From NCBI GenBank assembly GCA_964016885.1, contig OZ024743.1, positions 1,612,001-1,676,000 on the forward strand: 64,000 nucleotides of DNA, written 5' to 3'. This stretch comes from Eledone cirrhosa (lineage: Eukaryota). Both the position numbers and the translations under genes were made by a program. The first letter of the stretch is position 1. Each line of letters begins with the position of its first letter. Positions 3,007 through 4,302 of this stretch are shown piece after piece. Under the pieces are notes generated by a model, which was given only the letters and a program-made list of their open reading frames with translations, searched no databases and was not told where the DNA came from.

Positions 3007-4302
3007 AGAGAATTAGTACATCTACCAACATATGTGTACAGATATACACCCATGCTAGCAAATATATATGTTATGTCTTAGTACCTTTGTGGTTCTATGC
3101 AGGGGGATGCAGAACAAATATATGAAAGACGGAAAATAAGAAAATTTTAAAAATTAAAAATCAACTTACTAAAATTTTCACTCCAACTAATTAGTTTCTG
3201 TAAGGGGATAAATATAGTTACATAATATAACTATAGAGAATTCCTTACGTCATCAGGGAGTCTATTCTCAGCTAAGTTCCCAGGCGATGCGCGGACACTA
3301 GGAACCCATATAAAAATAATAATTCAGTGGATGGGATAAAGCTAGCGGGGACTAAATACCAGAGCACTGAAAAAATTCACTGCCTCTGGTCAGTGGCAGA
3401 TTCTAAAGAATCAATCACGTGACACTGAGGTTAATCAGTTAGGAGCGGGGTGGTATTATGACAAGAGCCTACTACTACCATGAATCAGCAGTAAATTTTG
3501 GCAAGTTTTGCTCAACAAATAATTTGGAGATAAATATAGAGAATTAGTACATCTACCAACATATGTGTACAGATGTACACCCATGCTAGCAAATATATAT
3601 GTTATGTCTTAGTACCTTTGTGGTTCTATGCAGGGGGATGCAGAACAATTATATGAAAGACGTAAAATAAGAAAATTAAAAAAATTTAAAATCAACTTAC
3701 TTACTAAAATTTTCACTCCAACTAATTAGTTTCTGTAAGAGGATAAATATAGTTACATAATATAACTATAGAGAATTCCTTACGTCATCAGGGAGTCTAT
3801 TCTCAGCTAAGTTCCCAGGCGATGCGCGGACACTAGGAACCCATATAAAAATAATAATTCAGTGGATGGGATAAAGCTAGCGAGGACTAAATTCCAGAGC
3901 ACTGAAAAAATTCACTGCCTCTGGTCAGTGGCAGATTCTAAAGAATCAATCACGTGACACTGAGGTTAATCAGTTAGGAGCGGGGTGGTATTACGACAAG
4001 AGCCTACTACTACCATGAATCAGCAGTAAATGTTGGCAAGTTTTGCTCAACAAATAATTTGGAAATAAATATAGAGAATTAGTACATCTACCAACATATG
4101 TGTACAGATGTACACCCATGCTAGCAAATATATATGTTATGTCTTAGTACCTTTGTGGTTCTATGCAGGGGGATGCAGAACAAATATATGAAAGACGTAA
4201 AATAAGAAAATTTTAAAAATTTAAAATCAACTTACTTACTAAAATTTTAGTAAGTAAGTTGATTTTTAATTTTTAAAATTTTCTTATTTTACGTCCTTCA
4301 TA
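3007..4302 (-). mobile_element. Retrozyme-like tandem repeat (531/535-bp unit, ~2.3 copies) with terminal fold-back
   Basis: gaattagtacatc recurs at 3010, 3541 and 4076; inverted ~58-bp tail at 4245-4302; flanked by (GA)n and (TA)n; one HHR per full unit. Confidence 0.85.
3180..3261 (-). ncRNA. Type I hammerhead ribozyme (second copy 3715-3796)
   Basis: actcc-CTGATGA-c gtaagg...tatagtta/taactata...ccttac a-GAAA-ctaattag-TT-ggagt. Palindromic helix III AACUAAUUAGUU, GUU site. Confidence 0.85.

Follow-up and report, generated by a model that had tools for sequence, protein, structure and literature searches.

The insertion at 3007–4305 is in all likelihood a non-autonomous retrozyme of the Penelope type: a tandem of hammerhead-bearing units, the last of which stops just past its predicted ribozyme cut and turns into an inverted copy of itself. 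The best explanation overall, which is put forward tentatively, is that a multi-unit RNA ended by its own ribozyme was copied into two separately primed cDNAs, and that these annealed at the palindrome AAAATTTT. Similar stops occur in two other families of the window (the whole 64,000-nt stretch of DNA that was analysed), and a neighbouring array carries an allele pattern that a mirror copy would not give.

Structure of the insertion

The preliminary description had proposed a hammerhead tandem of about 533 bp whose third unit stops at AAAATTTT and inverts, and both points hold. The head-to-tail part (3012–4248) contains 2.3 copies of units of 531 and 535 bp with 96–97% identity and a hammerhead core in each full unit. 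Comparison of the window with itself matches 4184–4305, that is, the end of unit 3 plus the inverted arm, at 96.7%. The parts are as follows.

2944–3011, no strand: (GA)34 microsatellite, adjoining the 3′ end of the insertion (RNA sense)
3012–3542, minus strand: unit 1, 531 bp; its left end is the presumed first start of reverse transcription
3180–3261, minus strand: hammerhead copy 1 (core 3256–3185), predicted cut between 3185 and 3184
3543–4077, minus strand: unit 2, 535 bp, with 12 substitutions and one 4-bp indel relative to unit 1
3715–3796, minus strand: hammerhead copy 2 (core 3791–3720), predicted cut between 3720 and 3719
4078–4248, minus strand: partial unit 3, 171 bp, 5′-truncated at least 6 nt downstream of the predicted cut
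4241–4248, no strand: AAAATTTT, an 8-nt palindrome native to the unit and sitting on the inversion junction (centre 4244/4245)
4249 to about 4305, plus strand: inverted 5′ arm of about 60 nt, the complement of 4184–4240 with 2 differences
4300–4430, no strand: (AT)n microsatellite flank, which has ATATAT in common with the far end of the arm

Since the hammerhead lies on the minus strand, the RNA of the element would run from right to left, from a 5′ end at the fold-back to a 3′ end near 3010; the start of reverse transcription at the left end of unit 1 is deduced from this orientation. AGAG is common to (GA)34 and the unit junction, so that the boundary of the insertion may lie anywhere in 3007–3012. 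The flanks are (GA)n and (AT)n, and no target-site duplication is readable inside such microsatellites. The far end of the inverted arm lies about 106 nt inside the 3′ end of the direct copy, a one-sided ‘tail’ pattern. There is no stop-to-stop frame of at least 120 aa within 3012–4305, and hence no protein-coding capacity. The (GA)34 tract begins directly after ...atgtat; it may represent stuttering of the reverse transcriptase at initiation, or growth from an AGAG seed.

The 3′ cleavage product is predicted to start with GGAGUG-AAAAUUUU, and the bases absent from unit 3 before the cut are cactcc, in keeping with the earlier count of 6 missing nucleotides. Because the palindrome AAAATTTT fits either side of the junction, this number is a minimum, and the true join lies 6–14 nt from the cut.

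The hammerhead motif

Each full unit contains one minus-strand type I hammerhead core, located by a manual descriptor scan. The motif consists of a CUGAUGA...GAAA core, a GUU triplet, a 5-bp stem I, an extended stem II and a palindromic stem III, and so has the elements that define type I (CUGANGA/GAAA core, NUH triplet, stems I–III). The ribozyme-like fold is predicted at −16.0 kcal/mol, against −18.5 kcal/mol for the minimum free energy structure. Rfam returned no match at gathering score across the whole 64-kb window, and none of the 19 weak matches on 3000–4320 is a hammerhead; the assignment as a ribozyme therefore relies on the manual descriptor and on family variants that preserve stem II. 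Weak Rfam microRNA matches on the fold-back, far under gathering scores, were dismissed as AT-rich hairpin noise.

Among the family variants listed from public contigs (the best 40 of 318, given without linkage), stem II pairing is kept in 10 of 12 rows, six of which make up three compensatory pairs (3779/3739, 3770/3748 and 3768/3750). Two listed rows break a pair, at 3757 and by A>C at 3762 (judged by hand, outside the script). The unit's hammerhead also has C·A at position 10.1/11.1, in place of the G10.1–C11.1 pair that closes stem II and is highly conserved in hammerheads (PMC4209133). Non-canonical closings also occur in two other families (A and E) and at two loci (L125 and L134) behind related Penelope-like ORFs, which suggests a variant rather than clear decay. 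In Xenopus, eight of nine retrozyme dimers gave no cleavage in vitro (bioRxiv 10.64898/2026.07.22.740005).

Other hammerhead elements in the window

Animal-like in character, the window is dense in elements of this kind. Self-comparison combined with motif scans gives seven elements that combine a hammerhead with an inverted 5′ part, namely the insertion at 3007–4305 and the first six entries below; the last entry comprises uninverted copies.

4611–7580: 5′-truncated Penelope-like element with the end of a reverse transcriptase and a GIY-YIG domain; stop codon at 5833–5835
14026–17209: 467-bp hammerhead units, 6.6 in number and almost identical, of a family related to that at 27–33 kb
27483–33643: array of 13 hammerhead units of 467 bp, with a perfect fold-back at 32237 and a 3-unit arm
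47673–48814: 542-bp repeat with a hammerhead-like motif and a long stem III; inverted arm of about 1 unit, tail of about 84 nt
49600–50343: 485-bp hammerhead family; the second unit, which ends 6 nt past the cut, is joined to an inverted copy
61350–62034: hammerhead element with a SINE-like insert; the inverted arm starts about 21 nt past the predicted cut
45628–45724, 49014–49112 and about 46345–46760: single hammerhead mini-elements in (TA)n, the first two 87% alike

The GIY-YIG domain of the 4611–7580 ORF is recognised by Pfam (E 2.9e-6). This element also has inverted pLTRs, a U3-A8 hammerhead variant at 7475–7504 and a CX4CxxC linker motif of the Neptune type (described in PMC8557442); its inverted side carries a tail of about 62 nt. 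The 531/535-bp unit has no similarity to its pLTRs at 4677–5230/7017–7580 (one pLTR compared; score 47, shuffle mean 52) and is weakly similar to the 485-bp family (score 95 against a shuffle maximum of 85). In 49600–50343 the inverted copy starts about 116 nt upstream of the cut, and both outer ends lie at one site, with no tail. At 8084–10390 there are second, broken reverse transcriptase and endonuclease-like frames, of Penelope type by eye, with no Pfam match and no hammerhead in the scan. A 58-bp tandem at 60081–60278 has a CUGAUGAGG motif with no matching GAAA, and is incomplete as a hammerhead in the scans.

Position of 5′ ends relative to the predicted cut

Three of the seven inversion junctions lie 6–9 nt past the predicted cut (2 of 6 if the discovery case is left out); the other four are far away. 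The near ends of direct copies are at +6 (junction at 4248), +6 (49600–50155) and +9 (14026–17127, followed by a 63-nt inverted arm that starts in the unit's internal (AT)n). The far ones are at +219 (27483–32236), about +169 (47673–48307), about −100 (61573–61800) and, in the last case, within the ORF (5231); for the 542-bp and 61.7-kb elements the position of the cut is less certain. No end falls exactly at the cut among the junctions of the window.

Under a binomial model with a uniform null on a 490-nt unit, the direct ends without the discovery case (2/6, 10-nt window) give p = 0.006; the value is 0.02 with all 11 ends and 0.07 when these 11 are counted in a ±10 window, and as the 10-nt window was picked after the data had been seen, all values from 0.006 to 0.07 are post hoc. 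The three uninverted mini-elements end 73–330 nt upstream of their cuts, and with them added the count becomes 2/9 (p about 0.014, by hand). A hammerhead scan would miss any monomer whose end lay just past the cut, since no ribozyme would be left in it. Six inverted self-matches that have no hammerhead motif are outside the junction count: 12609–13061, 23896–24036, 38860–38969, 45885–46077, 56027–56269 and 61156–61565.

These numbers have to be weighed against chance, that is, random 5′ truncation followed by a join at an AT-rich palindrome that happens to adjoin the ribozyme. Six perfect 8-nt palindromes occur per unit, AAAATTTT among them, and two of the six lie no more than 15 nt from the cut, so that palindrome-guided joins would often land there; moreover, the census comprises seven junctions and a post hoc window, with p up to 0.07 under the loosest count. 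Against this, the two replicates come from other families and are not palindrome joins, and all three cut-proximal ends fall on the same side of the cut, within 4 nt of each other. Chance is accordingly regarded as an unlikely explanation, and the position of the stop is probably set by the ribozyme in some way.

The link between breakpoint and ribozyme drawn in the preliminary description thus survives in part. Stops 6 and 9 nt past the cut in two other families speak for it, as do, weakly, loose contig ends at about 10 nt (see below); on the other side stand the four distant junctions and the fact that a folded, uncut ribozyme would fit as well. A clustering of Penelope or retrozyme ends at a hammerhead was not found reported in the literature searched, most of it open-access.

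Evidence from public contigs

The family is dispersed and multi-copy in public data, with 2909 and 2646 contigs in two runs of one sample and 49 in a second organism (numbers of contigs, which are not copy numbers). In runs X1 (9 contigs) and X2 (15 contigs) the loose ends at 3686 have a consensus that breaks off after ACTAAAA, some 10 nt beyond the cut; in X2 it continues into (TA)n. These ends, with a median loose length of 10 nt and an agreement of 0.66–0.68 among the best 24 of 449, give weak backing to a ribozyme-linked stop. Run X1 also contains a strand-switch joint, 3654–3727, the sole one near the ribozyme among the joints listed (15 of 17); 3727 lies 8 nt upstream of the cut, inside stem III, and 3654 is near the position of the arm's far end. 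Binned contig depth, which is not a copy number, has no drop at the cut.

In the RAD-seq run X11, depth is near zero at 3684–3721. Its end peaks at 3542 and 3650 were rejected as start sites: four of the six listed peaks fall exactly on AATT words (3542, 3650, 3677 and 3774), and are therefore read as restriction ends.

The insertion's own junction is absent among the joints listed (15 of 17) for four public runs, which may come from other individuals and whose contigs record presence only. This absence and the long low-complexity tracts of the window are what an assembly artefact or a later DNA rearrangement (a chimeric read, or a fold-back at a microsatellite) would have in its favour. Such an origin is very improbable, given that the arm differs from every direct unit and that six other elements of the window have the same published architecture.

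A metagenome search with the family motif gave no match. Among 13 metagenome loci of related Penelope-like endonucleases, five have hammerhead motifs, and no tandem or inverted copy was found. A generic hammerhead pattern matched 121 stretches in viral contigs; two of these, identical to each other, have a 4-pair stem I and were taken as chance.

One cDNA or two

In the preliminary description, reverse transcription ran to the ribozyme-made 5′ end, and the cDNA then snapped back on the palindrome; it would have copied about 60 nt of itself and joined (AT)n by microhomology. Several observations at 4248 agree with this reading: the palindrome at the junction is perfect and has no spacer, the arm equals unit 3 except at two sites (as a divergence of 2–3% between units permits), and the arm's far end shares its ATATAT with the flank. 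Snap-back junctions have been found at low frequency with the R2 protein (PMC11331408), and self-priming at junction palindromes was proposed for Penelope elements in 2013 (PMC3846280).

The energetics do not favour it. A hairpin on AAAATTTT is predicted at +2.1 kcal/mol, compared with −6.5 kcal/mol for two annealed cDNA ends, and the cDNA end is predicted to be unfolded. Of the two sites, out of about 60, at which the arm differs from the adjacent unit 3, one has the allele of unit 1, at a position that is about 50:50 in the family (public contigs). As an argument against snap-back the two differences are weak, since age alone could have produced them. At the two remaining cut-proximal junctions there is no palindrome, and the join leads to a distant position.

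A further pattern comes from the young 467-bp array at 27483–33643, as it stands in one assembly. At unit position 425 its direct units read T C T C T C C T C T, and its arm reads C T C. At each of the three mirrored sites, the only mismatches in 1406 nt, the arm has the other of the two alleles, and it continues the alternation of the direct units; the perfect fold-back at 32237 is thus not a mirror copy. Here the stop of the direct copy and the start of the arm are no more than about 5 nt apart (at 47673–48814, about 10 nt). A non-mirror arm together with a direct copy that stops where the arm starts is what would be expected from a second primer on the same RNA, and it accords with a Penelope protein for which nicking and extension of both strands from two start sites have been shown (PMC11167929). 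L1 twin priming, attributed to Ostertag and Kazazian in 2001, reportedly works in this manner: a second primer gives rise to an inverted 5′ segment, which takes up the sequence at the point where the first cDNA ended. In addition, the unit-by-unit C/T alternation, which has one slip, suggests that the template may have been a dimer (934 nt), possibly a circle.

Snap-back is therefore disfavoured, and has become an improbable account of the junction; annealing of two separately primed cDNAs is the better one, and probably correct. The literature searched, most of it open-access, yielded no report of allele evidence for twin priming in Penelope elements or retrozymes.

Cut RNA end or folded roadblock

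If the stop is linked to the ribozyme, the RNA may have ended there, or the ribozyme may have been in the way. Two cDNAs that end at one point are most simply explained by a true RNA end. The alternative is a two-primer insertion from uncut RNA, with the reverse transcriptase stalled at the base of a folded, perhaps protein-bound, hammerhead. In each of the three cases the missing length is that of stem I plus 1–2 nt (6 nt for a stem of 5 bp, twice, and 9 nt for one of 7 bp); an enzyme halted by a folded ribozyme would stop there, stem I being the first helix that it meets. The X1 joint at 3727 lies past the cut, inside stem III, and the arm at 50153–50343, which has two alleles in common with the unit that ends at +6, passes through an intact ribozyme at 50195–50268; together these show that uncut RNA also serves as template. 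The ribozyme of the anole element acts with the help of protein; in vitro it could be dispensed with and the substrate was mainly unprocessed RNA, and RNA-seq placed no ends at it (PMC11167929).

What stands against a roadblock is that the same enzyme read through internal ribozymes, two in 3012–4248 and six in the 14–17 kb array. A 5-bp helix is a weak block to reverse transcriptase, and the alleles shared by 50153–50343 may equally be private mutations of the third copy. Stalling is held unlikely, and within a ribozyme-linked stop a cut RNA end is judged the likelier cause, on sequence evidence that would fit both. That a few bases were lost on joining is plausible; with one ribozyme-capped R2 template, joins that show a slight 5′ truncation are frequent (PMC11331408).

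Proposed course of the insertion

The preferred reading, two cDNAs on a cut RNA, would run as follows. The mobiliser would be the reverse transcriptase/GIY-YIG protein of a Penelope-like element, from whichever Penelope family supplied it, and the template a multi-unit minus-strand RNA with uncut inner ribozymes and a 5′ end made by ribozyme cutting in vivo. The endonuclease would nick both strands of the microsatellite target. The first nick would prime a cDNA at 3007–3012, from which 2.3 units were copied; the second cDNA would be primed about 106 nt further in (the equivalent of 4184), and about 60 nt copied. Both would reach the same ribozyme-made end, lose a few terminal bases, presumably by trimming, and anneal via the self-complementary AAAATTTT to give the head-to-head fold-back.

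For Penelope-type insertions of this genome in general, a broader proposal is made with slightly greater reserve: cDNAs may have two preferred stops, one at the ribozyme (+6 to +10) and one at the second priming site, and inverted heads may be second cDNAs made on the other strand of the break.

Relation to known elements

The insertion is of a known kind; inverted 5′ copies, junction palindromes and self-priming have all been published. Tandem hammerhead repeats have been described as non-LTR retrozymes that derive from Penelope elements (bioRxiv 10.64898/2026.07.22.740005). With animal non-LTR retrozymes the insertion shares a non-coding tandem, a type I hammerhead per full unit, at least two consecutive motifs and high copy number (Cervera and de la Pena 2020, PMC7229834; Li, Clavereau and Pollet 2026, bioRxiv 10.64898/2026.07.22.740005). 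Inverted heads, or insertion ends in relation to the cut, are not described in the accessible portions of these two papers, and ‘inverted’ and ‘truncat’ have no match in that of PMC7229834.

Features published for Penelope elements include partial tandem copies, 5′ copies in inverted orientation, tails on one side and insertion into microsatellites (PMC8557442, PMC3846280, PMC2377424). The complex Penelope-like insertions of these three papers resemble the present one in their head-to-head inverted 5′ copy, junction palindrome, one longer end and presumed microsatellite target. Tails in this literature measure 30–40 bp, compared with 60–110 nt in the window and about 106 nt at 3012–4305. PMC3846280 explains palindromes by self-priming, whereas two cDNAs with separate primers are favoured by the alleles of the 27–33 kb array. 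A link between junction and ribozyme was not found in the accessible portions of the three papers. Relative to the literature searched, what appears to be new is thus the proximity of three of seven junctions to the cut and the non-mirror alleles of the 27–33 kb array.

The Penelope protein PAc (from Poseidon of Anolis) nicks and extends both strands, with two start sites (PMC11167929). Its AT-rich targets and two internal start sites without target homology are further likenesses to the present case. For PAc the ribozyme was not needed in vitro, and no RNA ends lay at it, whereas here some genomic ends cluster beside the ribozyme. R2 is similar in that a ribozyme sets the template's 5′ end (PMC11331408). 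L1 twin priming, as described above, is similar in its second primer and its inverted 5′ segment. L1 and R2 both differ from the present elements in enzyme family and ribozyme class; here the second start site would be fixed and internal, and templates are multi-unit.

If the broader proposal is correct, the junctions would testify, at the level of the genome, to in vivo cutting of the integration template by Penelope hammerheads; a single twin-priming mechanism on multi-unit, possibly dimer-circle, RNA would then account for inverted pLTRs, for the palindromes at junctions and for tails. The origin of tandem and inverted structures is named as unresolved in the literature consulted. Insertion junctions are a fossil record of template ends; should the +6 to +10 cluster and the non-mirror arms be borne out across the genome, an existing assembly would be enough to answer how such structures arise. 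The 3012–4305 locus alone is an ordinary insertion, and its value lies in pointing to this cheap genome-wide test.

Further repeats in the window

A short dispersed element with a long internal palindrome occurs in (TA)n tracts at 4431–4558, 13882–14006, 23896–24116 and 38780–38969. On the minus strand, 39921–45164 holds a LINE that appears intact, with two ORFs: one of 592 aa has a zinc-knuckle motif, and the other, of 1112 aa, has endonuclease and reverse transcriptase. Further LINE frames are found at 18891–21261 and 33525–35894. A run of N at about 17817–18023 represents an assembly gap.
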